Made by a program: the position numbers and the translations under genes. A stretch of DNA of 64,000 nt from Calditrichales bacterium. GTDB taxonomy: Bacteria; Calditrichota; Calditrichia; Calditrichales; J004. The notes under the pieces were generated by a model, which was given only the letters and a program-made list of their open reading frames with translations, did not search any database and had not been told where the DNA came from. This document shows positions 49,382-64,000 of the stretch, one piece after another. Within the stretch, counting starts at the first letter, position 1. Every line of letters begins with the position of its first letter. The stretch covers positions 192,001 to 256,000 of the forward strand of contig OZ254086.1 of NCBI GenBank assembly GCA_965267575.1. The letters are read 5' to 3'.

Positions 49382-49449
49382 TTTTCCGTGGTTGTTTTAA
49401 AACATAATTTTAGTTAAAGTTGAAATTTACAAGTGTCCGGCATAGGGAT

Positions 49450-50973
49450 ATGAACCAACCCAAGCACAATAAAGTTCTGATAGTGGAAGATCATCGCGAT
49501 ATGCTGATGGTTTTGCGCAAATATCTGGAAGATCAGGAGTTCACCGTTTTTGAAGCAGAAAGCGGTGAAAAGGGCATTGAGCTTTACCAAAAACATCTGC
49601 CCGATCTGGTTTTGCTGGACATTATGCTGCCCGGCATATCCGGCCTGGATGTGCTGAACCAGATAAAAAACCACAAGAGAAACAACGGTTACATCCCTGT
49701 TATCATCATCACCGCCAAAAACGACATCAGCGACATCGTGCGCGGTTTAAGCACCGGTGCCGATGATTATATCACCAAGCCTTTTCATTTTGACGAACTG
49801 ATCGCGCGCATCAAATCGGCTCTGCGCCTGAAGGAATTGAACGAAATGCTGGTTGATCAGTCACGCCGGCTGGAAGGGGCCAATAACGAGATCAAGGGGC
49901 TTAACAGCGCGCTGCTGAAAAAAAACCGCGAACTGCGCAAAAATATTTACGGCCTGCATTCGCTTTTTGAAGTCTCAATGGACCTCAGTTCTATCCTCGA
50001 GCTGGACAATCTGATCAACTCGGCTTTGCTGACTATCATCGGGCAATATTCCTGCAAGAACGCGCTCTTTTTGCTGCGCGATGAACGGGAGCAGGACCGT
50101 CTGCATGTTTTCGGCCACAAGGGTTTCGGTGAAGAGATTGTTGAAAAAATCGCCCTGCCGGCGGACGATCCGATGGTCAGCTTCTTTTTAACGCACCCGG
50201 CGCCGATACACCTGCCGGATCTGGAAAAGCAAATTGTAACCACCCAGGCCTTTACGGATCTGCAAAACAATGAAATCGAGCTGGTGATGCCGGTCATCAG
50301 CAGCCAAAAAGTGAATGGCGTTTTATGTTTCGGCCCGCGGGTAAAAAAGGGACAATACGAGGAACGCGAGCTGCAGCAGATCACCATTCTTGGCAATATT
50401 ATTTCCATTGCCGTGAACAACGCGCTGCTTTATGAAGAGGTGGAACAGCTTTCTTACACCGACGGCATGACTGATCTGCACAATTACCGCTACTTCGAGC
50501 TGCGTCTCAAGGAAGAAGTGATGCGCCATAACCGGACGCGCGCCGGGCTCTCGCTGCTGATCCTCGATGTGGACCATTTTAAAAATTTTAACGACACCTT
50601 GGGTCACCAGGCCGGCGACCGCGTGCTGCGCAAACTGGCCGGCATCCTCAAGGAAACAGTGCGCGAAAACGATATCGTGGCCCGTTACGGCGGCGAAGAG
50701 TTTGCCGTGATTTTACCGGCCGTGGACCGCGCCGGGGCCAAGATACTGGCCGAGCGGATACGCCAGCGCGTGGAAGAAAGCTTCTTTGAAGGCGAGCATG
50801 TGCAGCCTTTGGGCAAAGTGACCGTAAGCGTCGGCGAAGCCAATCTGCCGCATGACTCAGACAACTTTATGGACCTGATACGCAAAGCCGACACGGCGCT
50901 CTATGCCGCCAAGAAAAACGGCCGCAACCAGGTTAAAACATTCAGCCCGGATGTGACGGGCCAAAAACAATGA
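49450..50973 (+). CDS. Diguanylate cyclase (REC-GAF-GGEEF)
   Basis: Receiver (LLDIMLP), GAF-like middle, RxxD I-site (REND) and RYGGEEF. Confidence 0.92.
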   Translation: MNQPKHNKVLIVEDHRDMLMVLRKYLEDQEFTVFEAESGEKGIELYQKHLPDLVLLDIMLPGISGLDVLNQIKNHKRNNGYIPVIIITAKNDISDIVRGLSTGADDYITKPFHFDELIARIKSALRLKELNEMLVDQSRRLEGANNEIKGLNSALLKKNRELRKNIYGLHSLFEVSMDLSSILELDNLINSALLTIIGQYSCKNALFLLRDEREQDRLHVFGHKGFGEEIVEKIALPADDPMVSFFLTHPAPIHLPDLEKQIVTTQAFTDLQNNEIELVMPVISSQKVNGVLCFGPRVKKGQYEERELQQITILGNIISIAVNNALLYEEVEQLSYTDGMTDLHNYRYFELRLKEEVMRHNRTRAGLSLLILDVDHFKNFNDTLGHQAGDRVLRKLAGILKETVRENDIVARYGGEEFAVILPAVDRAGAKILAERIRQRVEESFFEGEHVQPLGKVTVSVGEANLPHDSDNFMDLIRKADTALYAAKKNGRNQVKTFSPDVTGQKQ

Positions 50974-52088
50974 AAATTGGAATTACCTGTTATCCCACAT
51001 ATGGCGGAAGTGGCGTTGTAGCCACGGAACTGGGCAAGAAAATGGCCACACTGGGCCATGAGATTCACTTTATCTCCTACCAGCTTCCTTACCGCCTCAG
51101 TCGTTTTACACCCAACATCTATTTCCACGAAGTGGATGTGCTGCACTACCCGCTTTTTGAATATCCGCCCTACTCGCTTTCGCTGGCCTCAAAAATGGTC
51201 GAGGTGATCGACAACGCCAAGCTGGATATTCTGCATGTGCACTACGCCATCCCCCATGCCACCAGCGCTTTCCTGGCACGGGAGATGACCAACGGCAGCT
51301 TTAAATTTGTAACCACCCTGCACGGCACGGACATCACGCTGATCGGCTCGGATCCGTCCTATCTGAATATTGTGAAATTTTCCATCGATAAGAGCGACGG
51401 CGTAACAGCGGTATCCGATTACCTGCGCCGCGAAACCTACGATACGTTCCATGTCAAAAACGACATTCGCGTAATTCCCAACTTTATACCGGACCAGTTT
51501 TTGGAAGTGGATGTGACCAGCAAGCGCGATTCCTGCCTGCGTGAAAAAGATGAGCTGATCATCACCCATATCTCCAATTTCCGCCCGCTCAAACGGGTGA
51601 TGGACCTCGTCTATGTTATGGAAAAGCTGGTCGATCGTTTTGATTTCAAGCTGTACATGGTGGGCGACGGGCCGGACCGTTACAAGATGGAACAGCTCTG
51701 CCGTGAACGCAATCTGTGCGACCGCATTATTTTCCTGGGCAAGCAGCAAAGTGTGGAAGAAGTGCTGGCCTGCAGCGACGTATTTGTCCTGCCCAGCGAA
51801 GAAGAGAGCTTTGGCCTGGCCGTACTGGAAGCGCTTGCCTGCGGCGTGCCTTGTGTAACCACCAACGCCGGCGGTCTGCCCGAGGTAAACGTGGACGGCG
51901 AAACCGGCTACACCGTGGACATCGGCGACATCGACGCTTTTGCCGACCGCATTGGCCGGCTGCTGGAAGACAAAGAGCTGCGCCTGAAAATGGGCATCAG
52001 CGCCCGTGATATCTCGCGCGCCCGTTTCCGCTCCGACAACGTGGTCCCCAAATACATTCAATACTATGAAGACGTTCTGAATTCGTGA
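50970..52088 (+). CDS. bshA: N-acetyl-alpha-D-glucosaminyl L-malate synthase BshA
   Basis: MKIGITCYPTYGGSGVVATELG, HVHYAIPHA, TTLHGTDIT, HISNFR..KR, EESFGL..LEA. Confidence 0.95.
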   Translation: MKIGITCYPTYGGSGVVATELGKKMATLGHEIHFISYQLPYRLSRFTPNIYFHEVDVLHYPLFEYPPYSLSLASKMVEVIDNAKLDILHVHYAIPHATSAFLAREMTNGSFKFVTTLHGTDITLIGSDPSYLNIVKFSIDKSDGVTAVSDYLRRETYDTFHVKNDIRVIPNFIPDQFLEVDVTSKRDSCLREKDELIITHISNFRPLKRVMDLVYVMEKLVDRFDFKLYMVGDGPDRYKMEQLCRERNLCDRIIFLGKQQSVEEVLACSDVFVLPSEEESFGLAVLEALACGVPCVTTNAGGLPEVNVDGETGYTVDIGDIDAFADRIGRLLEDKELRLKMGISARDISRARFRSDNVVPKYIQYYEDVLNS

Positions 52089-52816
52089 AGACTCCAACGA
52101 TCATCTCCCACCGCGGCAGGGGAGATCACTCCCTTCCCGAAAATACAATCGAAGCGTGCGAAGAAGCGCTGAAACAAGGTGCCGAAGCACTGGAAGTGGA
52201 TGTGCGCTTTTGCGGCAGCGGCGAACTGGTGGTATTTCACGATCTTTATTTGAAACGGCTTACCGGCAAAAGCGGTCGCATCTGGGCCACCACACTGGGA
52301 GAACTGAAGCGCCGGCCGCTGGTACAGTCGCCGCAGGACAAGCCGCTGTACATCCCCACTCTGGCGGAATTTATCGATCACTTCAAGGGCACCGTGCCCA
52401 TCAACCTGGATGCCAAGGTATTTACGCCGCTGGCCGGGCAATTTGCCAAGTACCTGGTGCGGGCCATCAAAGCCTCCGGCTACCGCGAGCAGTTCTGGGT
52501 CTCTTCTTTTAACCCCATTTTTCTGCGCACCGTAAAAGTGTGCGGCATGGACATAAAAACCGGCTACCTTTTTCAGCATTTCAACAAGTTGCGGCATTGG
52601 ACGGAATCTTTGTGGTACACGGAATACTGGCACCCGCACGTGGATATGGTGGATGATAAATTTCTGCAGCTCGCCGAAAGGGAAGACAAACCGCTTTACG
52701 TGTGGACGGTGAACGACGAAACGAATGTCCGCCGTCTTATAAACGAGCCGATGGTTGCCGGTATTATTTCCGATGTACCGCAACACGTACATACAATTAT
52801 CAACAGGCATTCCTGA
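52085..52816 (+). CDS. Glycerophosphodiester phosphodiesterase family protein
   Basis: SHRG, PENT, EVDV, VFHD, SSFN, VWTVN, GIISD.P. Confidence 0.9.
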   Translation: MKTPTIISHRGRGDHSLPENTIEACEEALKQGAEALEVDVRFCGSGELVVFHDLYLKRLTGKSGRIWATTLGELKRRPLVQSPQDKPLYIPTLAEFIDHFKGTVPINLDAKVFTPLAGQFAKYLVRAIKASGYREQFWVSSFNPIFLRTVKVCGMDIKTGYLFQHFNKLRHWTESLWYTEYWHPHVDMVDDKFLQLAEREDKPLYVWTVNDETNVRRLINEPMVAGIISDVPQHVHTIINRHS

Positions 52817-52824
52817 TTGCATTT

Positions 52825-52853
52825 TTGTCAAATCAAAGCTGATTGCCTATAAT
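52825..52853 (+). promoter_or_regulatory. Putative sigma-70 promoter of clpS
   Basis: TTGTCA-N17-TATAAT. Confidence 0.6.
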
Positions 52854-52870
52854 GGGGCAGGAGTTGAGCT

Positions 52871-53221
52871 ATGGCTAAAAAAGAAGTACCTGTCCTGCCG
52901 GAAATTGAAACCGAAGAGCAGGAAGAGACAAGCACGGGACACGTTCCGCAATACAACGTGGTCCTTCATGACGATGACGATCACACCTACGATTATGTCA
53001 TCGAAATGCTGCGCGGTTTGTTTGGGCATGATTTTGATACGGCCTTCCAAATGGCTGTGGAGGTGGACACCATGGGCCGCGTGATTGTTTTTACCACCCA
53101 CAAAGAGCAGGCCGAGTTTAAGCGCGACCAGATAAAAAGCTACGGCCCCGATCCGCGGCTGGATCGCTCCAAAACCTCCATGCGCGCCACCATCGAACCG
53201 GTTTCCGGGGATAAGAAATAA
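52871..53221 (+). CDS. clpS: ATP-dependent Clp protease adaptor ClpS
   Basis: YNVVLHDDDDHTYDYVIEML...EVD..G. Confidence 0.85.
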   Translation: MAKKEVPVLPEIETEEQEETSTGHVPQYNVVLHDDDDHTYDYVIEMLRGLFGHDFDTAFQMAVEVDTMGRVIVFTTHKEQAEFKRDQIKSYGPDPRLDRSKTSMRATIEPVSGDKK

Positions 53222-53243
53222 AACATCAATACAAGGACGTATC

Positions 53244-53861
53244 ATGAACCAGAAAACCCCGCTCATTCTCCTGGCCATTTACATCATCCTTTTTACCGTG
53301 CTGGCCATTGACCCCTATGACCGTCCCGTGTGGTGGGCCGAGAACCTGCCGATCATGATGATTGTGGTCACTTTGATTATCCTGCAGCGTTGGTTTGTTT
53401 TTTCCCCGCTGGCTTATGGCCTGATGTTTGTGCTGATCGTCCTGCACACCATCGGCGGGCATTATACTTTCAGCCGCGTACCGTTTGGCTTTGTAACCGA
53501 CCTGTTTGGCTTTGAGCGCAACCATTACGACCGCATGGCCCACTTCACCGTTGGTTTTTACGCCTACCCGATTGCCGAGATGGTGCTGCGCAAACGGGCG
53601 GTTAACTCCAAATGGCTGCTTTTTCTTTTTCCCCTATTCAGTATTATTTCCGTCGCCGCGGTCTATGAATTGTTCGAATGGCAATTCGCCATCCTGGCCG
53701 ACCCGCAGGCCGGGGCCGAGGTCCTTGGCTCACAGGGTGATGTCTGGGATGCCCAAAAAGATATTCTTGCCGACACGCTGGGCGCCTTGGCCGTTATGGC
53801 GCTCTTTTTCTGGCGAAATGCAGGGGAGATTAAAGAGGGGATAAGGAAGCAAAAGGTCTAA
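53244..53861 (+). CDS. DUF2238 (YjdF-like) inner-membrane protein
   Basis: WWAEN, HTIGGHYTF..VPF, RNHYDR..H, YEL.EW, LGSQGDVWDAQKD. Confidence 0.88.
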   Translation: MNQKTPLILLAIYIILFTVLAIDPYDRPVWWAENLPIMMIVVTLIILQRWFVFSPLAYGLMFVLIVLHTIGGHYTFSRVPFGFVTDLFGFERNHYDRMAHFTVGFYAYPIAEMVLRKRAVNSKWLLFLFPLFSIISVAAVYELFEWQFAILADPQAGAEVLGSQGDVWDAQKDILADTLGALAVMALFFWRNAGEIKEGIRKQKV

Positions 53862-53928
53862 AACATTACGGGTTAAAGACTGTAATAACATTTGAAAACA
53901 CATATACCACTGTAGCCCCCATCTGACG

Positions 53929-54072
53929 CTAGTCCAGCCCGGAGTAGTCGATGCGCTCCCCGGCGTAGACGTACTGATCTATAGGGCTGATGATAGAAAC
54001 GGGATTCTTAAAGCCGCCAAACGCCGTTGAACAAAAAATTAAAAGCAGAGAACATACGATTGCGGTTTTCAT
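53929..54072 (-). pseudogene. Truncated copy (E) of the signal-PKD-RHS cassette; end of array
   Basis: MKTAIVCSLLLIFCSTAFGGFKNPVSIISPIDQYVYAGERIDYSGLD then TAG (47 aa); identical to the start of the 63150 protein. Confidence 0.9.
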
Positions 54073-54097
54073 TGTTCTTCCACGTCAGTATTTTCTT

Positions 54098-55027
54098 TTA
54101 AGGCAATATTTTAAAAATAACTGTCTTTTTATTATTTGAACCCATTAAATAAATCTGTTCATTTTGATATTTTATATCATAGTTAAAGCCACCAAACACA
54201 ACCATAAAGTCTTTTCCATATTTGCCCCCAAAGATATTTTCCAAATATGGAACCATATTAATAGAGTTAAAAACTCCATTATCCAGATCAAATTCTCTTA
54301 AGATCAAAGGTCCGTCCAGGGGCACAGCTATGCCACAATCGTTTTCAAAATGCAATATACCAGAAAAATTCTCTAAACCATTGACTACTGTTTTTTTACG
54401 GAGTTCTCCATTTAAATCAATAAAATAAATAAGGCTATCAGAAGGTAGAATAAAATAACCGTTATTATATGCAATCGTCGGCTCAAAAATTAGTGGCTTA
54501 TTAAAGTTCTTTATGTCGATTTTTTTTTCTATCCTCAGATGACCATTGCTTAGACTAAAAGATCTTAAAACCAAGTTGTAACGTTTCTCAAAAAAAGCAA
54601 AAAGTAGGCTATCAACCACGTGATAATCGATAATATTTCCTGATCCGATAGAAAAATTACTTAAAAGAACACCGTTAGTGTTAAATTCGCTTATTTCATT
54701 TTTTGGGACAGTGAAAAGGAATATTGATTTTCTATTCTGATCATATTTTATCTTGCGGATATCCTCAGGTACCTTGAACGTTCTATACAAAGAGTCATTT
54801 TTAAACACGATGATTTTGTTTTTATAATTATCAGGCAAATAGATGAATCCTTTTTCATCAATAGCAAAAGAATAAGGCACGGATTCACTACCTGAGCTTA
54901 TATAGACTTCACTCTTGTTACTATCTTCAAAAGGCACCTCTGAGAAGACGGAAATCTTCTCATTTTGTGAGAAGCATTTCGTGAAAATTATCATAAGAAA
55001 AAAGAACACGCGTAATTTATTTATCAC
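54098..55027 (-). CDS. Exported beta-rich protein, immunity position for cassette D
   Basis: AT-rich; signal peptide; PYSFAIDEKGFIYLPD propeller-like start; 20 bp downstream of the toxin ORF. Confidence 0.6.
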   Translation of the reverse strand: MINKLRVFFFLMIIFTKCFSQNEKISVFSEVPFEDSNKSEVYISSGSESVPYSFAIDEKGFIYLPDNYKNKIIVFKNDSLYRTFKVPEDIRKIKYDQNRKSIFLFTVPKNEISEFNTNGVLLSNFSIGSGNIIDYHVVDSLLFAFFEKRYNLVLRSFSLSNGHLRIEKKIDIKNFNKPLIFEPTIAYNNGYFILPSDSLIYFIDLNGELRKKTVVNGLENFSGILHFENDCGIAVPLDGPLILREFDLDNGVFNSINMVPYLENIFGGKYGKDFMVVFGGFNYDIKYQNEQIYLMGSNNKKTVIFKILP

Positions 55028-55046
55028 AGTATATCCTTTCCACTGA

Positions 55047-55829
55047 CTACTTACTTAGGATTGGTTTAATGTTGGACGGTTTTTTAGGAAAGGCAATTAT
55101 ACTATAGCCTGCATCTACAACATCACGTCTATTAACTCTTCCAATGCCTGCCATATTGTTATTTAAATATTTACCTTCATTTGTTGAGAATTGCGATTTC
55201 TTTACTCTTTTTGCGGAAGAACTGGCACTTGATAGTGTAATCTGACCATTATTTGGATTGTCTATGGCAACCATTACGTGTGTTATATTGCCAGCGCCAT
55301 TACCAATAAAGACGTAATCTCCTCCTTTTATTTGAGACGCATCATTTGTTTCTATATAGCTTCCAGCTTCGCCCGAATTAATTTCCTCAACTGACATACC
55401 AGATGGATCTACAAAAATTAAAGGATTATTAAATACATAATGATAGGGGGTTTGAGATAGATATTTCCTGCTAAGCGGATCAACAGATAAAAACCTTCCA
55501 ATCACGGGGTCATAATACCGTGCCCCAAAATAATAAAGCCCCAGCCCATTCTCATCATCCAGTTCCTTGCCGGAGAATTTGTAGATATCATTACCGGCGC
55601 CGGATGTGTGGCTGCGTCCGGGCATCCGTAAGCCAAAGGGATAGTAATCATCCTTGCTGACGATTTCGCCCTGTTCGTCCACCGTAACCACGCCAAAGGC
55701 GGGCAGGCGCGGATGTTGCCCAGATGGTCCTTCACATAATTGGTATTCCGGTTTACGCTTGATGGCGATCTGGAAGCTGTAGTAATTTCTATCGTTTACT
55801 TTTTTGCCGCTTTTTACCGCCTCCTCGTG
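55047..55829 (-). pseudogene. Cassette D: 5'-degenerate RHS core with partial NlpC/P60-like tip
   Basis: YYPFG, KFSGKELD, YFGARYYDP, DPSG. Signal and PKD are lost; a 20-bp insertion and a 2-bp deletion lie in the 5' homologous part. The ORF-track start (55691) is a GTG created at the insertion junction. Confidence 0.8.
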
Positions 55830-55873
55830 CTAAGAAGCAGAAAAAAATATAATTTCACCAAGATGTTCTGAAA

Positions 55874-56275
55874 TTAATCGTAGCCCCCAAGTGAATCTGA
55901 TAATATAAATAAAAATTCGTTTCTTGGATTGACCGATAAATCAATATAAATATCTTCGCTGAACATAAAACCGTGACTAACCTCTTTATCTCGCCAAACG
56001 GATTTAACTCTGACTAAGTTATATTTTCCCTTCTCTAAATTAATTTCAAAAACATTTATGTCCTCATGATTAATGCGTGTTAATCCTTCAGAGAAAATTA
56101 ATTTCTCGAATCCGTTATTGTTAACGACAAATATGTTTATTACTTCATCAGGCAAAAATCCATCTGACAGAATCAAATTCAAAGTGATACTGTCTGGTTT
56201 AGAATTAATATCTTGTGCTAAAGAAACAAGAGCTAATAGCACAACAAATAGAACTGACGATATGGTATTATTCAT
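55874..56275 (-). CDS. Exported small protein, immunity position for cassette C
   Basis: ATG 56275 overlaps (ATGA) the stop of the read-through toxin frame; signal peptide MNNTISSVLFVVLLALVSLA. Confidence 0.7.
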   Translation of the reverse strand: MNNTISSVLFVVLLALVSLAQDINSKPDSITLNLILSDGFLPDEVINIFVVNNNGFEKLIFSEGLTRINHEDINVFEINLEKGKYNLVRVKSVWRDKEVSHGFMFSEDIYIDLSVNPRNEFLFILSDSLGGYD

Positions 56276-57498
56276 TTTTTCTTTGCTCCATACCAAAAAT
56301 TAACTAATTCGTGTAAGCTTTTAATTTGCTTTAAAGTCGTTTTAGTGCCTATTGAGTACTTGGATTGTTGCATAATATTACCAATATCCTTTCGAATTAA
56401 TTCGCCTATGCTATTTCGAGGATGTTCAAGCCCTGCACCGTGTCCAAATTCGTGGGCCCCTGTTCTGGCTAATTGGTTATTCTCGCCAGAACTTGCAAGC
56501 TGCGCAGATACTTTTTGTACAGAACCTAAACGATGGGAAGAACCTAACTTTCCAGGCGCGGTATCGACAAGCTTAATTATGTTATCTCCTTCTCTTGGTT
56601 TCCCACTAGCTATATCAACATTTGCCTGCCATTTAGTTTTTCCATCTTTTGAATGTCCATTAAAAGAAGATTCAATCTGATCTTTAATGGTAGCTGCAAT
56701 ATTATCTAATTGCTCTTAAGTAAAGCTTTCTGAACTTTCATTAACTATTGTAGCAGTATACGTAATAGTATAAGTTACATTGCCATCCTTATCTTCTTCC
56801 TTAGTAGAGGATATATCTTTTCCGTCTGGATCAATATATATAATAGGATTATTGGCCACATAGACATAAGGACTTAGGTTACGATATGAATCGTAGTGCG
56901 GATCAACAGAAATAAACCTTCCTATCTCCGCATCATAGTACCGTGCCCCAAAATAATAAAGTCCCAGCCCATTCTCATCATCAAGCTCTTTACCGGAGAA
57001 TTTGTAGATATCATTCCCGGCACCGGATGTGTGGCTGCGGCCGGGCATCCGTAAGCCAAAGGGATAGTAATCATCCTTGCTTACGATTTCGCCCTGTTCG
57101 TCCACCGTAACCCGGATATTGCCCAGGTGGTCCTTCACATAAAAATGGTATTCCGGTTTGCGCTTGATGGCAATCTGGTAGCTGTAATAGTCTATCGCGC
57201 CTTCGTTGTCTTTTACTTTTAGCTTGATGCTGATGACGCGGTGGGTTTCCGTTTTGTCCAGCATGTAGGTTTGGGAAAAGCCGGAGCCCGTACCCGCCTG
57301 TTGGTCATCTATGTACCAGGTGTATTGGGTAATACTGCCGCCATCAGGATCGTAGCTGTCCAGCCCGGAGTAGTCGATGCGCTCCCCGGCGTAAACGTAC
57401 TGATCTATCGGACTGATGATGGAAACGGGATTCTTAAAGCCGCCAATTGCCGTTGAGCAAAAAATTAAAAGCAGAGAACATACGATTGCGGTTTTCAA
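56272..57498 (-). pseudogene. Cassette C: signal-PKD-RHS core-metzincin toxin with one in-frame stop
   Basis: TAA at 56716-56718; the same frame continues 147 aa with HEFGHGAGLEH and NIM to TGA at 56272. Confidence 0.85.
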
Positions 57499-57520
57499 TA
57501 CTCTTCCCTTAGACTTCCAA

Positions 57521-57985
57521 TTATTCCCATCCCATTATTTCATAAAATTGTTTTTTAAATGATGATATTTGCGAATTTGAATACAATTTTTTGATGACTT
57601 CTAAAGCTTCCTTAAATCCCCAATAATCTGCAATCTCTTCGTCTTTGCTTTTTCTTCTATTTTTTTTCCCATTTAAAAAATGTTTATGATGATAAAGTTC
57701 ATGCAAAAGAATACGGGATAATTCAAAAACAATGGTGATTTCTTTTTCAAGCATCGAAGATGGATATATATCTAATGTGTCAAACATTATTTCTATTTCA
57801 AATACGCCACCGTCTTTCTTAATCCACCTTCCTGCACTATTTTTTGAAGAATAATCTTTATCTAATAATATAATTTTGTTTATTCCATGAAAATTTTCTT
57901 TTCCATAAGTATCAATTATCTTTTGTAATAATTCTGCTCCATTCCAACTTGTATATTTTTCTTTTCTTAAGTCAACTATATTCAT
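57521..57985 (-). CDS. Cytoplasmic HExxH-motif protein in immunity position
   Basis: AT-rich, 154 aa; LLHELYH...EE.AD; begins 8 bp after the stop of the broken upstream toxin tip. Confidence 0.65.
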   Translation of the reverse strand: MNIVDLRKEKYTSWNGAELLQKIIDTYGKENFHGINKIILLDKDYSSKNSAGRWIKKDGGVFEIEIMFDTLDIYPSSMLEKEITIVFELSRILLHELYHHKHFLNGKKNRRKSKDEEIADYWGFKEALEVIKKLYSNSQISSFKKQFYEIMGWE

Positions 57986-57993
57986 AACAATAA

Positions 57994-58680
57994 CTAATTA
58001 CCTCCACTATTTGGGTCTTCTAAATTCCCAACTGCATCCATCAAATCTTTCAACCTTTGATTTTTAGGACTTAGCTTTTTTGCTTCTTCTTGGAGTTTAA
58101 ATTTCTCAGCTTCTTTTTGTTCAGCAGTTCTTGTGTCTGCACCCTCTTTTTTTCTGGATGCTTCAGCTTTGCTTTTTGCCTTTTTTCCCTGGTTCGCTTG
58201 GTCAGCAGTTTTAGTCTTCGAATTATTACTCGATCTTTCAGTAGGCTGCTCTATTGGATTCGAATCAATTCCCTCGCATTTAAAGGCGTATTAAGCGTAT
58301 AATTATAAGGAGACCACGCCGGATACTTATTTGCCAACGGATCAACCGCTACCCACCTTCCAATCACGGGGTCATAATACCGTGCCCCAAAATAATAAAG
58401 TCCCAGCCCATTCTCGTCATCCAATTCCTTCCCCGAATACTTATAAATATCATTATCCGTGCCGGCATTAAAGGAGCGGCCCGCCATCTGCAGCCCAAAG
58501 GGGTAATAGTCATCATGGCTGACCACGTCGCCGTTTTCATCCACGGTGACGCGGATATTGCCAAGGTGGTCCCACAGGTAGTAGTTGGCCGTGTATTCGA
58601 TCTTGTATTTAACTTCCAGGTAGGGCCGGTTGCTGCTCGCTTCCGAGCTGCGGAAACGGACGTGGCAGATGTCAAAGAAC
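57994..58680 (-). pseudogene. Cassette F 3' part: DNRLRE-like domain end + divergent RHS core + frameshifted tip
   Basis: RFRSSEASSNRPYLEVKY-KIEYTANYYLWDHLGNIRV...YYPFG...SPYNYTLNTPL. DPxG is missing; another frame gives EGIDSNPIEQ...DPNSGGN* ending at 57994. Confidence 0.75.
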
Positions 58681-59047
58681 TAAAAACCCAATCGCGCCCC
58701 AAGCGCGACGACGCATTATAGAGCCCCTATCCCCGGCCATAATCTTGCACGGAAGCCTGAAAGAAGCAAGACCCAATGCGTCAGGTCTTTTTGGTTCTTT
58801 TTGGACAGGCAAAAAGAACAATGTGCCTTGACTTAAAATCCCAGGCCAAAAGAAAAATTCTAAATGAGTCTGTCTGACCATTCTCAAGACAATTAGTCAG
58901 GCGGGAATATGAATGTTCTTTTTGTTTAGCCAAAAAGAACCAAAAAGCATATGCGCTTTCAGAGCGTATTTTGGGCCTGGCGGAGTTGTGTTCGCTGCCT
59001 TCCCCGCTCTACAAATGCGCAGTTCACGCCTCAGGGCGTGATTAGGT
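58681..59047. other. Structured non-coding element with 34-bp inverted repeats
   Basis: 58787-58820 and 58914-58947 are 30/34 reverse-complementary, each with an internal hairpin; several further hairpins. Confidence 0.7.
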
Positions 59048-59233
59048 TTAAAGATTCCCTTTTACATTCTTATAGTTGATGACCGCCGCGGAGATACGCG
59101 CCGTGTAGCTGCTGTCTTCTTCATTGAAGTAGATGTTGGCGTAGTTGCTGCGCTTTACCGGTTCTTCCTGGCCAAACAGTGGTAGGGAGAGAATGAAGGT
59201 GGAAAGGAGAAGGGTGGTGAATTTTGTTTGCAT
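59048..59233 (-). pseudogene. Cassette F 5' fragment (signal peptide + start of mature domain)
   Basis: MQTKFTTLLLSTFILSLPLFG-QEEPVKRSNYANIYFNEEDSSYTARISAAVINYKNVKGNL*; host-like GC. Confidence 0.55.
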
Positions 59234-59338
59234 GTGCTTTATGCTTAGGCTATAAAAACCATATAAAAAATATGCTTAAGATTACAGCTGAGATTTTCTT
59301 AACTACAGTCTTATTACTAACTGTTGATACCAAACCAA

Positions 59339-59740
59339 TTAATCGAAGACATACAGATCTATGTCTATTGACGAATCTAATTCATAAATATTTTTAATTG
59401 TTGCTTTTTTCAAATTAATAGCCGGCGTTTCATTACCATGCAAATTAACAACACATGATATTTCAGATTCGATCTGATATTTTTCGCAAATTTCCACAAT
59501 CTTTTTTTTAGCAGGCAAAATGATATTAATTAGTTTTTCTATTTCATAATTTAGATCTATCGATTCTGTCTCTTTTGAAGAGAGACACCACCCGTCTTGT
59601 TTTCTTTTTAGGGAAGAGTTCTGAATTTTCTCTCCCATTCTCCAAGTTTTTGTAGGAATTATTCCAATAAACTTAGTTATTTTATCAGGCTTTACACCAA
59701 TACCTGTCAATATAAATGAAACCTTTATTGTAGTTTGCAT
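59339..59740 (-). CDS. DUF4279-family immunity protein
   Basis: F.LTG..V.PD.IT...GI.PT.TW..GE...W...IDIDLY; directly after the Ntox33-like toxin. Confidence 0.8.
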   Translation of the reverse strand: MQTTIKVSFILTGIGVKPDKITKFIGIIPTKTWRMGEKIQNSSLKRKQDGWCLSSKETESIDLNYEIEKLINIILPAKKKIVEICEKYQIESEISCVVNLHGNETPAINLKKATIKNIYELDSSIDIDLYVFD

Positions 59741-59751
59741 CTTCGTTCCTA

Positions 59752-60873
59752 TTAAAAATTATTAATGTTTAGTCCAGTGGGTTCCCCCGGTCCAGTGGCA
59801 CTTTTTGGTTTTATTTTGATATTTCCTTTCGGGTCTTTGTACAAATCATATTTACTGGCACTTTTTCCGCCTTTAAGATCATGCACATCGACACCCCCAT
59901 CTTTGAGTTTCTTTATCTCCCCTTTTGATAGTTTCTTGTCTTGTGCAGAATCACTGTCTTCCTCTTCTTTATCATTTTCGTTTTCATTATTTGAATCCGA
60001 GTCTTTAACTTTCTTATATAAATGGTACCCCAAAATTCCGCCAAGTATTAGATCGCCTAGCGGAAGTGGCCCATCAATAGCTGCTGCACTTATGCCTACT
60101 GCGACAGCAGCGGCTTCCGCTGCTTCTTCTGGTTCATCCCCTTTATTTTCATCTTCATCTGAGTTTTTATCTTGTGTATCCGTGCTATCCATTCCTGTTG
60201 GGTCAATAAACCTAAGTGGGTTATTACCAACATAATTATAAGGAGTCAAGCTTAAGTAAGAGTCTGAATGCGGATCTGAGGTTGTAAACCGCCCCAAAGC
60301 CGGATCATAATATCTTCCAGGATTAAACCAATACAACCCCAGCCCATTCTCATCATCCAGTTCCTTGCCGGAAAATTTGTAGATATCATTCCCGGCACCG
60401 GATGTGTGGCTGCGGCCGGGCATCCGTAAGCCAAAGGGATAGTAATCATCCTTACTGACGATTTCGCCCTGTTCGTCCACCGTAACCCGGATATTGCCCA
60501 GGTGGTCTTTCACATAAAAATGGTATTCCGGCTTACGCTTGATGGCGATCTGGTAGCTGTAATAATCTATCGCGCCTTCGTTGTCTTTTACTTTTAGCTT
60601 GATGCTGATGACGCGGTGGGTTTCCGTTTTGTCCAGGATGTAAGTTTGGGAAAAGCCGGAGCCCGTGCCCGCCTGCTGGTCATCTATGTACCAGGTGTAT
60701 TGCGTAATACTGCCGCCATCAGGATCGTAGCTGTCCAGCCCGGAGTAGTCGATGCGCTCTCCGGCGTAAACATACTGATCTATTGGGCTGATGATGGAGA
60801 CGGGATTCTTAAAGCCGCCAATTGCCGTTGTACAAAAAATTAAAAGCAGGGAACATACGATTGTGGTTTTCAT
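59752..60873 (-). CDS. Cassette B: signal-PKD-RHS core-Ntox33-like toxin
   Basis: Conserved N-terminal block, DPTG, hydrophobic DGPLPLGD linker, tip DKKLSKGEIKKLK...HDLKGG...YDLYKD..GNI.IKPK...GPGEPTG.NIN. Confidence 0.85.
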   Translation of the reverse strand: MKTTIVCSLLLIFCTTAIGGFKNPVSIISPIDQYVYAGERIDYSGLDSYDPDGGSITQYTWYIDDQQAGTGSGFSQTYILDKTETHRVISIKLKVKDNEGAIDYYSYQIAIKRKPEYHFYVKDHLGNIRVTVDEQGEIVSKDDYYPFGLRMPGRSHTSGAGNDIYKFSGKELDDENGLGLYWFNPGRYYDPALGRFTTSDPHSDSYLSLTPYNYVGNNPLRFIDPTGMDSTDTQDKNSDEDENKGDEPEEAAEAAAVAVGISAAAIDGPLPLGDLILGGILGYHLYKKVKDSDSNNENENDKEEEDSDSAQDKKLSKGEIKKLKDGGVDVHDLKGGKSASKYDLYKDPKGNIKIKPKSATGPGEPTGLNINNF

Positions 60874-60883
60874 AGGCACATTT

Positions 60884-61810
60884 CTAAAGCGGCAAATTAT
60901 TCACAACAAAAAACATACCGTTACATCCCCAGATAATTAACTCACCGGATTTGGCCAAAAAGGCAGAATAACAACTATTTAAGGTTGCTAGTTCAGGTAA
61001 ATGTTTATTTAAATTTATTTTATAACTTCCGTCTTTATGTACAATAAAATCGCTAAATTCTTCATCTTCGGTTATTATAAATATGGAGTCATTTAAGCTC
61101 ACAAAAGCGCCATCAAGTGCCAGAAAATCAAAAATCGTATATGTTGTATCCTGATTAATATTAAATTCTAAAACTTTACCCACATAATCGTAAGCACCGC
61201 GGCTGGCGTTATACGTGTCAAATAGATATACTATACTATCTCTGGCGTTTTTAAACTGTCCTATTAAACTTCCTTCGGCATTTAGAGAATCATCACTGGC
61301 AACATAGGTATTGTATTTCTCGGTAGTATAAAATAATCTTTTATTTGCTGTATAATAGATATCTCGAACATCCTTGGCTAAAAAACGAAAAACTTCTTCA
61401 TGATCATCAAATGTGATAGCAATTATGCTGTCACGAGTATTTAAAAATATTTTATTGTCCTCAATGCTAACATATTGAATATTCCATCCTTTAGGGAATA
61501 GGGCTATTTTCTGCAAGGATCTTAGTTTAAAATTAAAATGAAACAATTCGTTTGTTTTATCCCCAAACAACCCAGCTAAATATAATGAGGAGGTATCGAT
61601 TCCCACGATTGATAGTATTTTTATATTAAAATCACCATACAAATATGAAATGGATGAATCTAAAAGAGATTCTTTTTTATATAGTGTATCCGGGACAACT
61701 GTAATTGTTGAATCTAATTTGTAATTGGGATTATCTTTAGCGCTTGGTTTCGCGTTTTTGTTTCCGCAGCTTAAGATAATTAAAATAAAAATTAATATTG
61801 TCGATTTCAC
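60884..61810 (-). CDS. Lipoprotein, immunity position for cassette A
   Basis: GTG start, lipobox IILSC, AT-rich, beta-rich. Confidence 0.7.
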   Translation of the reverse strand: MKSTILIFILIILSCGNKNAKPSAKDNPNYKLDSTITVVPDTLYKKESLLDSSISYLYGDFNIKILSIVGIDTSSLYLAGLFGDKTNELFHFNFKLRSLQKIALFPKGWNIQYVSIEDNKIFLNTRDSIIAITFDDHEEVFRFLAKDVRDIYYTANKRLFYTTEKYNTYVASDDSLNAEGSLIGQFKNARDSIVYLFDTYNASRGAYDYVGKVLEFNINQDTTYTIFDFLALDGAFVSLNDSIFIITEDEEFSDFIVHKDGSYKINLNKHLPELATLNSCYSAFLAKSGELIIWGCNGMFFVVNNLPL

Positions 61811-61842
61811 AAGAAGCTCCCATCATAAAGTCTATACTCTTT

Positions 61843-63150
61843 TTAATTGGAATCAAGCCGAAATGCACGCCCACTATTTAAGCCTCTTAGCCACGATTCA
61901 TAAATTGCCCGGCCAATTGGACTATCTGTATTTCTTTTTCTGCTGTCATACGACCTTTTATCTTTGGCCAAAATAAAAGCCTTGGGTTGATTATCACGAT
62001 CAAAGGCCCAATTTGCTCCTATCTTACCATTGTTTTTTCCAATATTATACACAATTGGAACCATTTTGCCCCACTCTGTACTTGGTATCATATCTTCAGG
62101 AGCTACAATAGCCACATGTCCCGAACCATTTTCGTTAAAAGATGCCAATATTGTTGTTATCCCTTCCTTCGCGTAATTAGCCGCCTGTTCATAGCTAATT
62201 TCTATTGCATTTGGCTCGTCTAGCGGAACAGACATTAAAAAACTATACATGTCATTTGCGCGCATACCATCTAGTGAATGGTCTTGTCCTTCATTTAAGA
62301 TATCCCTTACTCCAAAATTACAAAACGTAGTAAGATTTATATTTATCATTTCGAAGCCATCGTCAAGCGTAGTAACAGAACCGCTAAACCAATACCTGGG
62401 CTGAAGATTGCTGTCATTTACTATCTTCATTCCTGCCTCATTCAGTTTTGCGGCTGTGCCAAAATCAGCTTTCCCATCGGGATCAACTCTATTTATAGCA
62501 TTGTTATGAGTGTATTGAAAAGGACTGTCACTTAAAAATTTATCCGCCAACGGATCAACCGCTACCCATCTGCCAATCATGGGGTCATAATACCGTGCCC
62601 CAAAATAATAAAGTCCCAGCCCATTCTCATCATCCAGTTCCTTGCCGGAGAATTTGTAGATATTATTGCCGGCACCGGATGTGTGGCTGCGGCCGGGCAT
62701 CCGTAAGCCAAAGGGATAGTAATCATCCTTGCTTACGATTTCGCCCTGTTCGTCCACCGTAACCCGGATATTGCCCAGGTGGTCCTTCACATAAAAATGG
62801 TATTCCGGTTTACGCTTGATGGCGATCTGGTAGCTGTAATAGTCTATGGCGCCTTCGTTGTCTTTTACTTTTAGCTTGATGCTGATGACACGGTGGGTTT
62901 CCGTTTTGTCCAGCATGTAGGTTTGGGAAAAGCCGGAGCCCGTGCCGACCTGCTGGTCATCTATGTACCAGGTGTATTGGGTAATACTGCCGCCATCCGG
63001 ATCGTAGCTGTCCAGCCCTGAGTAGTCGATGCGCTCCCCGGCGTAAACGTACTGATCTATCGGGCTGATGATGGAGACGGGATTCTTAAAACCGCCAAAC
63101 GCCGTTGAGCAAAAAATTAAAAGCAGAGAACATACGATTGCGGTTTTCAT
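61843..63150 (-). CDS. Cassette A: signal-PKD-RHS core-Cys/His amidase-like toxin
   Basis: PKD-like DSYDPDGGSITQYTW...LKVKDNEGA; DHLGN, YYPFG, ARYYDP, DPDG; tip TFCN...RANDM...GHVAIV. Confidence 0.85.
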   Translation of the reverse strand: MKTAIVCSLLLIFCSTAFGGFKNPVSIISPIDQYVYAGERIDYSGLDSYDPDGGSITQYTWYIDDQQVGTGSGFSQTYMLDKTETHRVISIKLKVKDNEGAIDYYSYQIAIKRKPEYHFYVKDHLGNIRVTVDEQGEIVSKDDYYPFGLRMPGRSHTSGAGNNIYKFSGKELDDENGLGLYYFGARYYDPMIGRWVAVDPLADKFLSDSPFQYTHNNAINRVDPDGKADFGTAAKLNEAGMKIVNDSNLQPRYWFSGSVTTLDDGFEMININLTTFCNFGVRDILNEGQDHSLDGMRANDMYSFLMSVPLDEPNAIEISYEQAANYAKEGITTILASFNENGSGHVAIVAPEDMIPSTEWGKMVPIVYNIGKNNGKIGANWAFDRDNQPKAFILAKDKRSYDSRKRNTDSPIGRAIYESWLRGLNSGRAFRLDSN

Positions 63151-63290
63151 TGTTCTTCCTCCGCGGCTTCGCGTTTCTCCAGCCAGGCCAGTTCGTCTTC
63201 GCAGATAGCGGCTTCTTCACTCTCCGGCCAGCCGCTCTTTATTTCCGTAAATAGCGTACGTGCTTCTTCCCACTGTCCGTCGCATTGTCG
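63147..63290 (-). pseudogene. 3' remnant of a TPR-like gene coupled to cassette A
   Basis: Start-less, GC-rich frame DGQWEEARTLFTEIKSGWPESEEAAICEDELAWLEKREAAEEEQ*, with ATGA overlap on the cassette A start. Confidence 0.6.
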
Positions 63291-63346
63291 CTACTACTTT
63301 TGGGACATGACCCTTAATAAAATACGACAAACTACAAAACTTGTAG

Positions 63347-64000
63347 TTACTCTAAGAGCCTAAATAGTAATTGTTCTTCTATATCAAATTGGTTGTTCTC
63401 ATATTTGTACAATAAAACATAATAGCTTATAACATTGCCCTTTTGTGTTTTAAAAAATTGTTCATAGTAATAGTTGCCATCTTCCATAACAATTTGATTA
63501 TTTGGCTCTATCTTATATTCATTAATGAGATAATTAAACTCGTCTTTATTTTCGGCGGCAAAAATAGTAGCTTCACTGCCTATAAAAATCTCACTCATTA
63601 TATTTATTATTTTATTAAAACTTGCCTTAGTAACATCTTCTAAAAAAAACCTATTTACGAAATCAATAATATTATTTTTATTTAGGTCATAGGTCTCATA
63701 ATCATATTCCCGAATGTGTATGGCAAAAATAACCTCGCTATCTATAAATATACTCTGAATGTCGTGTTCAGCTTTATAAAATCTAACATCATCAACTTTT
63801 TCGAGTAAAGTTAAAAGTATAGCGGTATCTGAAAGGCTTGTAACCTTATTAATTAGTGTAAACATCTCATTAACGTCTTTTTTGTTAACCTGTTCGTGAT
63901 GTTTCACGATTGAACGAACAAAATAAAACCTAGAAAAATCTTTAACTTCTTCTACGCTTAGTACGGTTTGTCCCTTACAAAAAAGCACTGTACTGAATAC
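63347..64000 (-). CDS. AT-rich hypothetical protein, probable immunity gene of an upstream cassette (5' end outside window)
   Basis: Frame is open to the window edge (VFSTVLFCKGQ..., possible end of a signal peptide); composition matches the other immunity-position genes. Confidence 0.6.
   Translation of the reverse strand, partial: VFSTVLFCKGQTVLSVEEVKDFSRFYFVRSIVKHHEQVNKKDVNEMFTLINKVTSLSDTAILLTLLEKVDDVRFYKAEHDIQSIFIDSEVIFAIHIREYDYETYDLNKNNIIDFVNRFFLEDVTKASFNKIINIMSEIFIGSEATIFAAENKDEFNYLINEYKIEPNNQIVMEDGNYYYEQFFKTQKGNVISYYVLLYKYENNQFDIEEQLLFRLLE

Follow-up and report, generated by a model that had tools for sequence, protein, structure and literature searches.

Short Rhs-core toxin genes with signal-like N-termini in a Calditrichales genome resemble the warhead gene of a split Rhs operon

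An AT-rich island at the end of a 64,000-nucleotide (nt) stretch of a Calditrichales genome (hereafter the window, meaning the whole stretch that was analysed; bases 192001-256000 of contig OZ254086.1, assembly GCA_965267575.1) carries an array of short genes, here called minis, whose best preserved products comprise a signal-like N-terminus, a PKD domain, the RHS-associated core and a variable C-terminal tip. In relatives among the Bacteroidota, a gene of the same layout is the third gene of an operon that, judged by its gene content and alignments, is a split Rhs, with the YD-repeat shell and a TPR protein encoded separately. The best explanation of the whole is that the array consists of the warhead genes of this split-Rhs polymorphic toxin family and that three of its copies (Z, A and B) act here without a shell; we place the probability of this reading at about 0.5.

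The source genome is a single contig of 4,732,520 bp (GC 0.496, 98% complete). The island spans from about position 53900 to the window end, has a GC content of 0.385 (genome 245900-258430) versus 0.51 in the 20-kb flanks, and has all of its genes on the minus strand (window list of open reading frames, ORFs). Read 5' to 3', its first half contains copy Z, a 231-amino acid (aa) ORF, copy A, a 308-aa ORF, copy B and a DUF4279 gene, and its second half a 61-aa ORF, copy D, a 154-aa ORF with a HExxH motif, copy C, a 140-aa ORF, copy E, a 309-aa ORF and fragment F. Copy Z lies just outside the window: a preliminary description, made from the window's letters, had proposed reading on past position 64000, and there we found this further full-length copy, followed upstream by the gene of a 388-aa TPR protein, by a PIN gene and by genes of housekeeping function, with no YD-repeat gene among them.

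The block shared by the array genes

Copies Z, A, B and C share a block whose likeness, on the DNA alignments, is far beyond chance: A is 95.7% identical to C over 575 nt, 94.5% identical to B over 544 nt and 95.6% identical to Z over 498 nt. The homology between A and C begins 9 nt before the start codon, and that with Z begins only past the different signal-like N-terminus of the latter, which is joined at the same point. The RHS-associated core reported in the preliminary description was recovered in all five window copies, with TIGR03696 scores of 62-73.6 bits against a cut-off of 32.5 (E 73.6, B 63.3 and D 62 bits), and Z was matched in the genome search. No RHS/YD repeat family (PF05593, TIGR01643 or PF25023) was found at E<=0.01 in the 12 proteins that were scanned. 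Signal peptides were judged throughout by a heuristic of hydrophobicity and small residues alone, according to which the N-termini of the copies have a 10-residue hydropathy of 2.7-3.2 and candidate AxG/AxA sites. The description of these genes as self-standing, each with its own start and a predicted signal peptide and free of YD repeats, agrees with these results, and so does its observation that the tips are unrelated and that each is followed by an AT-rich gene; we found the tips to be mutually unrelated beyond about residue 196.

The PKD domain proposed for the block is probable from its modelled fold; its PKD_4 scores (21.2-24.4 bits) are below the cut-off of 27. In an AlphaFold model of A residues 1-235 (predicted local distance difference test, pLDDT, 85; predicted template modelling score, pTM, 0.62; residues 1-18 disordered) the PKD domain of ColG was matched with a template modelling (TM) score of 0.88 by target and a root-mean-square deviation of 1.8 A, and TccC, YenC2 and Rhs chains were matched by the same model at their C-termini (E ~1e-8). 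At the sequence level, A residues 123-231 align with the end of the conserved TccC3 region, a stretch of ~105 residues that reaches DPDGL (E 1.8e-16), and the same segment matched 22 PDB sequences at E<=0.001.

The part of PMC11461821 that describes self-cleavage attributes that of Rhs toxins to two aspartates and gives a motif, and the motif is written as PxxxxDPxG[LWF] in the corresponding part of a preprint (10.1101/2024.02.26.582050). Across 105 aligned homologues no change is seen at D199 or G226, and at least 90% retain D223; D199 and D223 correspond by position to the TccC3 aspartates, one of which (D651) is named in PDB titles, in a mapping that assumes a fused-chain offset of 1474. 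PxxxxDPxG stands in Z, A (where A replaces P), B, C and E but not in D, and the residue after DPxG in these copies is K or M rather than L, W or F.

In the 158-codon mature block of Z, A, B and C we counted 15-23 synonymous versus 2-6 non-synonymous differences, giving a ratio of non-synonymous to synonymous rates (dN/dS) of 0.02-0.10 at dS 0.16-0.27. Because this ratio is low, the block appears to have been preserved as a protein in each copy, unless gene conversion mimics the effect.

This result bears on the possibility that the array is an ordinary set of silent orphan rhs-CT cassettes (core ends with C-terminal toxin tips), a reservoir used only upon recombination into a full-length rhs gene. 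Such cassettes would likewise appear as tandem core-tip-immunity units with a common homology block; copies D and E are without starts, and a related genome (L001) has orphan arrays that begin inside the Ig-like domain. We nevertheless regard this possibility as improbable, since purifying selection acts on the block, each of Z, A, B and C begins with a start and a signal-like N-terminus of its own (with a GGAGG ribosome-binding site 7 nt 5' of the ATG in A), and there is no full-length gene with the block into which a cassette could recombine. According to the preliminary description, its reading would fail if the block were an internal segment of a long upstream Rhs gene; no long Rhs gene sharing the block was found upstream of the array or anywhere in the one-contig genome. 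TIGR03696 matches nine places genome-wide: the six array copies, two short loci and one 2521-aa gene that belongs to a Tc toxin locus, and the core of this Tc gene is dissimilar to the block.

One relative, P0002, is 85% identical. Relatives of the junction with the PKD domain were limited to seven weak loci on genome contigs and three on metagenome contigs, the best being 68% identical over 34 residues. In a tree of the core segment (105 columns), in which 24 of 47 inner branches are unresolved, the copies of this genome form a group (89/98) that also contains P0002 and two Calditrichota proteins with YD repeats; this grouping is too weak to name an origin.

Relatives with a shell-TPR-mini operon

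From one Bacteroidota-type phylum 401 genomes were drawn evenly, and 30 of them contain a match at E<=1e-30 to a Gracilimonas mini that served as query. Thirteen loci from eight genomes, in which the first mini has a signal-like N-terminus, were inspected; one further locus (L055), with a 407-aa signal-bearing gene after genes of 674 and 470 aa, was left unclassified and is outside the 13. The order YD-repeat gene, TPR gene, mini was present in 10/13 loci (6/8 genomes), with a gap of 11-16 nt between shell and TPR genes and an overlap of 1-4 nt between the mini start and the TPR stop. The first gene encodes DUF6443 and RHS/YD repeats without a core, and the four complete products are 1618-2054 aa long with signal-like N-termini. 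The second encodes a signal-like N-terminus, in most cases a CBM_20-like part, and TPR repeats, two of the proteins having YfiO/BamD-like matches. The contents of the first and third genes are complementary, since TIGR03696 was found in 11/11 minis, while the 3/3 shells have TIGR01643 and no core.

When compared with a fused Rhs of 2339 aa from the same group, one shell can be aligned as far as residue 2032 and its mini from residue 2022, which indicates that the gene was split exactly before the last hairpin and that the signal peptide and Ig-like domain of the mini are additions. On this evidence from sequence comparison, the operon of the Bacteroidota relatives is interpreted as a split Rhs; we call it the three-gene split Rhs operon, a grouping made in this analysis, and the layout of the array genes fits its mini (signal peptide, Ig/PKD, last hairpin, core, tip; ~400-490 aa). 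In one Calditrichota contig (L022) the end of a shell, an Ig-like domain and a core stand in one frame. Ig-like matches to another locus, L021, were considered as the same junction and rejected, as they are an insert inside the shell.

The minis are not always found in the complete arrangement. Spare minis stand behind the first one in three loci, with their own signal-like N-termini in L048 and L038 and without them in L037; L038 has an 89-aa YD remnant, a TPR gene and two minis; and lone minis were seen in 2/13 loci (L041 and L042).

The architecture that the preliminary description proposed seeking in other genomes proved to be widespread. A word-based search with the block returned 180 proteins of 239-762 aa, and among the 120 of these that were listed, eight have a signal-like N-terminus and 100-199 residues before the core motif. 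A profile of 15 mini sequences (A2) was run over 1.84 billion cluster representatives and the best 150 clusters were assessed: 104 have a length of <=600 aa and a core motif located at residue 100-220, and 60 of the 104 begin with M and a hydrophobic N-terminus, 55 of these 60 being 407-494 aa long. Twenty of the 150 exceed 600 aa, and 15 of the 20 are without the core motif and match, where checked, via many repeated Ig-like stretches. Pfam was scanned with 54 of the 60 (of the remaining six, four were handled elsewhere and two are short); known toxin domains were found in 13, a PKD family was reached in three, and no YD repeat family was found in any of the 54 at E<=1e-4.

The toxin domains in the family tips are WHH, Colicin_D, TseH, M91, JAB1, Ntox50, lipase, RNase, M15 and GIY-YIG. 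The family is large, and nucleases, lipases and cell-wall enzymes are among its tips. One member, WP_020404502.1, comes from the cultured Gracilimonas tropica and is named only "RHS repeat-associated core domain-containing protein", and two clusters hold members with TARA sample codes. Among Bacteroidota and Calditrichota of marine and sediment habitats, the mini family probably serves widely as a weapon. Another type without a shell, ~800 aa long, also exists, consisting of a signal peptide, a CBM96/disaggregatase-like part, the core and a tip.

Two further features were noted in Rhs ends from these lineages. In Caldithrix and relatives (P0030, P0037, P0040, P0055 and P0004) an interleukin-like EMT inducer (ILEI) domain (PF15711) of ~150 aa lies inside the RHS-associated core, between KELDEE and YYFGARYYDP, and in Calditrichota Rhs ends (P0036, P0050 and locus L004, 2143-5606) 7-residue PA(R/G)AGQV-like inserts occur directly behind or near KDH(LG).

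Mechanism, and partners in this genome

In the relatives, the shell and the warhead would be exported separately and joined outside the cytoplasm, where the hairpin and plug of the warhead would complete the shell, much as TcC completes TcB; additional warhead genes with their own export signals would let one shell carry different toxins. The idea of a split Rhs with a separate shell, raised in the preliminary description, is thus supported by 10 of the 13 Bacteroidota loci, but no shell or TPR partner was found in the genome that gave rise to it. Since both genes are absent, we infer that Z, A and B are made and exported on their own here, via the predicted Sec signal. They would cut themselves at DPxG, freeing the amidase-like tip of A, the Ntox33 tip of B and the unassigned tip of Z, and the producer would owe its protection to immunity proteins, either exported or cytoplasmic.

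The absence of the partners was examined in several ways. The genome has no match to DUF6443 (PF20041), to two shell proteins (tblastn included) or to a profile of shell C-termini, nor to a TPR-gene protein or a profile of 11 such proteins. The TPR protein of 388 aa that is encoded upstream of Z is without a signal-like N-terminus and is dissimilar to the TPR partner of the relatives (E 0.9). In 86 Calditrichota genomes the TPR-gene profile gave weak matches only (E 5.6e-11 or worse), all but one of them in the TPR part. The sole YD repeat match in the genome is the 2521-aa gene, a fused TcB-TcC (SpvB 356 bits, TcdB middle regions, FG-GAP) that carries its own tip and adjoins a TcA of 3146 aa. 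This Tc (ABC) toxin locus (L062, genome 84359-102523) is outside the window, and its TcA has TcA_TcB_BD at 430 bits.

The Tc locus provides one conceivable alternative, in which the minis dock on another carrier here, either the fused TcB-TcC (~95-102.5 kb) or a shell too divergent to be recognised. Both TcA and the fused TcB-TcC (2521 aa) are present, and Tc cocoons are naturally two-chained according to PDB titles, yet this TcB-TcC has its own core and tip and lies ~150 kb away, and no core-less YD gene was found in the genome, so that we judge docking on such a carrier to be very improbable.

As for secretion, the genome has one secretin and no TssC (type VI) was found in it, while type IX C-terminal sorting domains above the cut-off number at least 150 (150 of 185 candidates scored), two of them in the window (genome 196000 and 198415). 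Because the minis end in their tips, they have no type IX C-terminal signal.

Several of these observations weigh against the reading of the array as shell-free warhead genes. The shell and TPR partners are missing here, and none was convincing in the 86 Calditrichota genomes by the TPR profile, so that the split mechanism cannot operate in this genome as it would in the Bacteroidota loci. There is no evident route across the outer membrane for the minis. Their signal peptides are predictions of a heuristic, the confident fold of the modelled core may merely reflect the solved Rhs and Tc structures, and gene conversion could imitate the purifying selection. Finally, the locus may be decaying: of the four full-length copies, one begins with TTG and is interrupted by a TAA, and a further three copies survive as fragments.

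The main rival explanation builds on the same facts. According to it, the array is a stranded relic that followed the loss of the shell/TPR operon or the transfer of the warhead part alone; its copies would be undelivered, and only the immunity genes may matter. Besides the missing partners, the stop codon and TTG start of C and the fragmentary state of D, E and F are as expected of a relic, and in L038 the shell is reduced to a remnant beside two minis. In the shell-free warhead reading, too, C, D, E and F are decaying copies. A relic is harder to reconcile with the dN/dS among the four long copies (0.02-0.10 at dS 0.16-0.27), with the three copies that are intact and retain both catalytic aspartates, with the independent signal-like N-terminus of Z, and with the stand-alone minis of L041 and L042, and we consider this explanation unlikely, if less so than the two discussed above.

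The cage around the toxin in the solved structures of Rhs, Tc and teneurin-like proteins is built by the toxin's own chain or by one that contributes hundreds of YD residues. In the relatives, the cage and a 400-aa warhead are predicted to be separate exported proteins, with spare warheads that have their own export signals, which bears on how an exported toxin enters a pre-made cage or attaches to it, on the roles of the TPR protein and the PKD domain, and on core cleavage without a cage. We suggest, tentatively and at somewhat less than even odds, that Rhs toxins can be built from separately exported parts (a YD shell, a TPR helper and swappable warheads) that are joined outside the cytoplasm, with the toxin loaded post-translation into the cage or onto it, and that a warhead may also work cage-free, as it would in this genome, its core then serving as a free-standing self-cleaving release module.

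Individual copies and neighbouring genes

The preliminary description listed three full-length copies, starting at 63150, 60873 and 57498, and two broken ones, D and E, that share a block of ~190 aa. The first two of these starts, A and B, are intact genes, but the third, C, is cut by an in-frame TAA; D and E share the core part but not the rest of the block, as E retains only the last PKD strand and D derives from a CBM96-type gene. The breaks in C, D and E were read by three-frame translation.

Copy Z (window-equivalent 64035-65240, minus strand as for all features below) is intact and encodes 401 aa with a different signal-like N-terminus. It is followed by a 231-aa ORF (63347..64000, running on to 64042) with a signal-like N-terminus, a putative immunity protein for Z. 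Between this ORF and copy A is a GC-rich spacer of 196 nt (63151-63346) that contains an open frame with an acidic tail end and is unique in the genome.

Copy A (61843..63150) is intact, begins with ATG and encodes 435 aa: a signal-like N-terminus, PKD, core and a Tse1/Tae1-like Cys-His amidase tip. The tip has four homologues, all of which are on short Rhs-core proteins or unnamed, and Cys45, His113 and Asp121 are invariant across the five sequences. No PDB sequence was matched by the tip, and the Atlas gave merely a Tae4 lead at 0.90; with a model of the tip (pLDDT 75) Foldseek ranks 1-16 are all Tse1/Tae1 (E 1e-3 to 8e-3, TM 0.60-0.71 by target). Downstream, a 308-aa ORF (60884..61810) has a lipoprotein-like N-terminus (Leu-Ser-Cys) and no family match was found for it; it is a putative periplasmic immunity protein for A.

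Copy B (59752..60873) is intact, with 373 aa from its ATG, and comprises a signal-like N-terminus, PKD, core and an Ntox33 tip (76.6 bits). The 133-aa DUF4279 protein encoded next to it (59339..59740; PF14106, 88.7 bits) is a putative cytoplasmic immunity protein for B. The 61-aa ORF that follows (59048..59233) appears to be an N-terminal remnant, signal-like region plus first strands, of the ~800-aa signal peptide-CBM96-core-tip type, an assignment made by eye against the N-termini of P0121-P0130.

Copy D is a fragment (58251..58679; ORF 58251-58544) with the last CBM96/DNRLRE-type strand, a hairpin and the core. It ends before DPxG, has no start or export signal, and is the tail of a different, CBM96-type gene that resembles a 343-aa gene at genome 1859024. 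The 154-aa ORF downstream of it (57521..57985) has a HExxH motif and a Peptidase_M91 score of 19.9 bits, below the cut-off, and is without a signal-like N-terminus. A stretch of ~370 nt between D and the 61-aa ORF (58673-59047) was considered as a carrier gene and rejected because its copies elsewhere are intergenic. These copies are at genome 4065307-4065678, 1997064-1997439 and 1857515-1863387; identity is 76-90% over two long copies and up to 93% in shorter pieces, and some of the sites adjoin other Rhs-core remnants.

Copy C (56272..57498) has a TTG start, a signal-like N-terminus, PKD, core and, after an in-frame TAA, a metzincin-like HExxHxxGxxH tip. The TAA (56716-56718) ends the ORF at 260 aa (56716-57498), and the frame continues for 147 codons into the tip. 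The same TAA is present, with no differences, in contigs from four runs of one sample, contigs of flat depth that are not independent of the assembly, of which the sample may be the source; among the data sets listed as containing the stretch, no RNA entry was found. The 140-aa ORF downstream (55874..56296), for which no family match was found, has a signal-like N-terminus and is a putative immunity protein.

Copy E is broken (55047..55735; ORF 55047-55691) and retains the last PKD strand, a frameshift with an insert of ~20 nt, the core and a tip with a weak NLPC_P60 match (16.7-18 bits, below the cut-off). The insert (55690-55720) is in the same region as the KDH(LG) inserts of other Calditrichota Rhs ends. 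Directly downstream, a 309-aa ORF (54098..55027; GC 0.31-0.33), which has a signal-like N-terminus and matched nothing in Pfam or NCBIfam, encodes a putative exported immunity protein. No sequence relationship was found between the two ~300-aa downstream proteins, or between the tips of A and E.

Fragment F (~53932..54081) is a seventh copy, truncated at the island edge, of which the first 47 codons (signal-like N-terminus and the start of PKD) remain before a stop. Its identity is 92-95% with A, B and C at their 5' ends (141-150 nt) and 94.5% with Z (73 nt), likewise at the 5' end.

Signal-like N-termini were present on four of the six ORFs downstream of the copies by the same heuristic, one of them lipoprotein-like. 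Exported downstream proteins fit toxins that cross the periplasm or have their target there, such as the amidase-like tip of A.

The left flank of the island (49420-53861) has a response regulator/GGDEF-like gene and a glycosyltransferase gene, both named from their translations, together with ClpS (62 bits) and DUF2238 (165 bits). No tRNA was found within genome 235-270 kb around the island. The two small Rhs-core loci elsewhere (genome 1859024-1861848 and 1642131-1649524) differ in content: one has CBM96 remnants and a metallopeptidase-like tip, and in the other, repeated fragments of tips are interspersed with genes for small membrane proteins.

Comparison with known systems

The preliminary description did not recognise the architecture as one already described, and our full-text searches, which did not cover subscription journals, likewise found no paper on Rhs-core proteins without YD repeats, on split Rhs or on DUF6443. 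In tables of Zhang et al. (2012; PMC3482391), RHS is given as one of the repeat types of toxins with a signal peptide ("T2SS"), and an architecture of this kind may be depicted elsewhere in that paper.

Canonical Rhs proteins (type VI effectors) and WapA proteins, as portrayed in the relevant parts of three sources (PMC12704120; PMC11461821; 10.1101/2024.02.26.582050), resemble the minis in having a core with a two-aspartate self-cleavage site before a variable toxin and then an immunity gene, and WapA of Gram-positive bacteria is Sec-exported by an N-terminal signal peptide, as is predicted for the minis. They differ in that a YD-repeat cage of hundreds of residues encloses the toxin, whereas the minis keep the last ~105 Rhs residues, preceded by PKD, and total 373-435 aa (A and B).

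Orphan rhs-CT/immunity cassettes are similar to the array as tandem units of core end, tip and immunity gene with a homology block, and copies D and E fit this pattern. The cassettes are without a start and delivery part in the portions of the accounts that treat them (PMC3967940, PMC7043789), whereas each of Z, A, B and C has a start and, in its N-terminal part, a signal-like sequence and a folded domain; this genome has no parent full-length rhs gene.

For the tip of A, the nearest likeness is to the Tse1/Tae1 type VI peptidoglycan amidases, which share a papain-like Cys-His fold with it, and the gene next to A encodes a protein with a lipoprotein-like N-terminus that is predicted to be exported; identity is 14-17% with E only ~1e-3, and delivery here is not type VI, there being no TssC.

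The nearest precedent for a split shell is the TcB-TcC cocoon (PDB 4igl, 5kis, 4o9x, 6h6e), in which, as in the operon of the relatives, an Rhs-type shell is made from two separately encoded chains, the second with the core and the toxin. TcC brings a YD-repeat region of ~600 residues and docks on TcA together with TcB, whereas the second chain of the relatives amounts to one hairpin and a plug; and unlike TcC, the mini of the relatives has its own predicted signal peptide and a PKD domain, with a TPR gene between the two genes.

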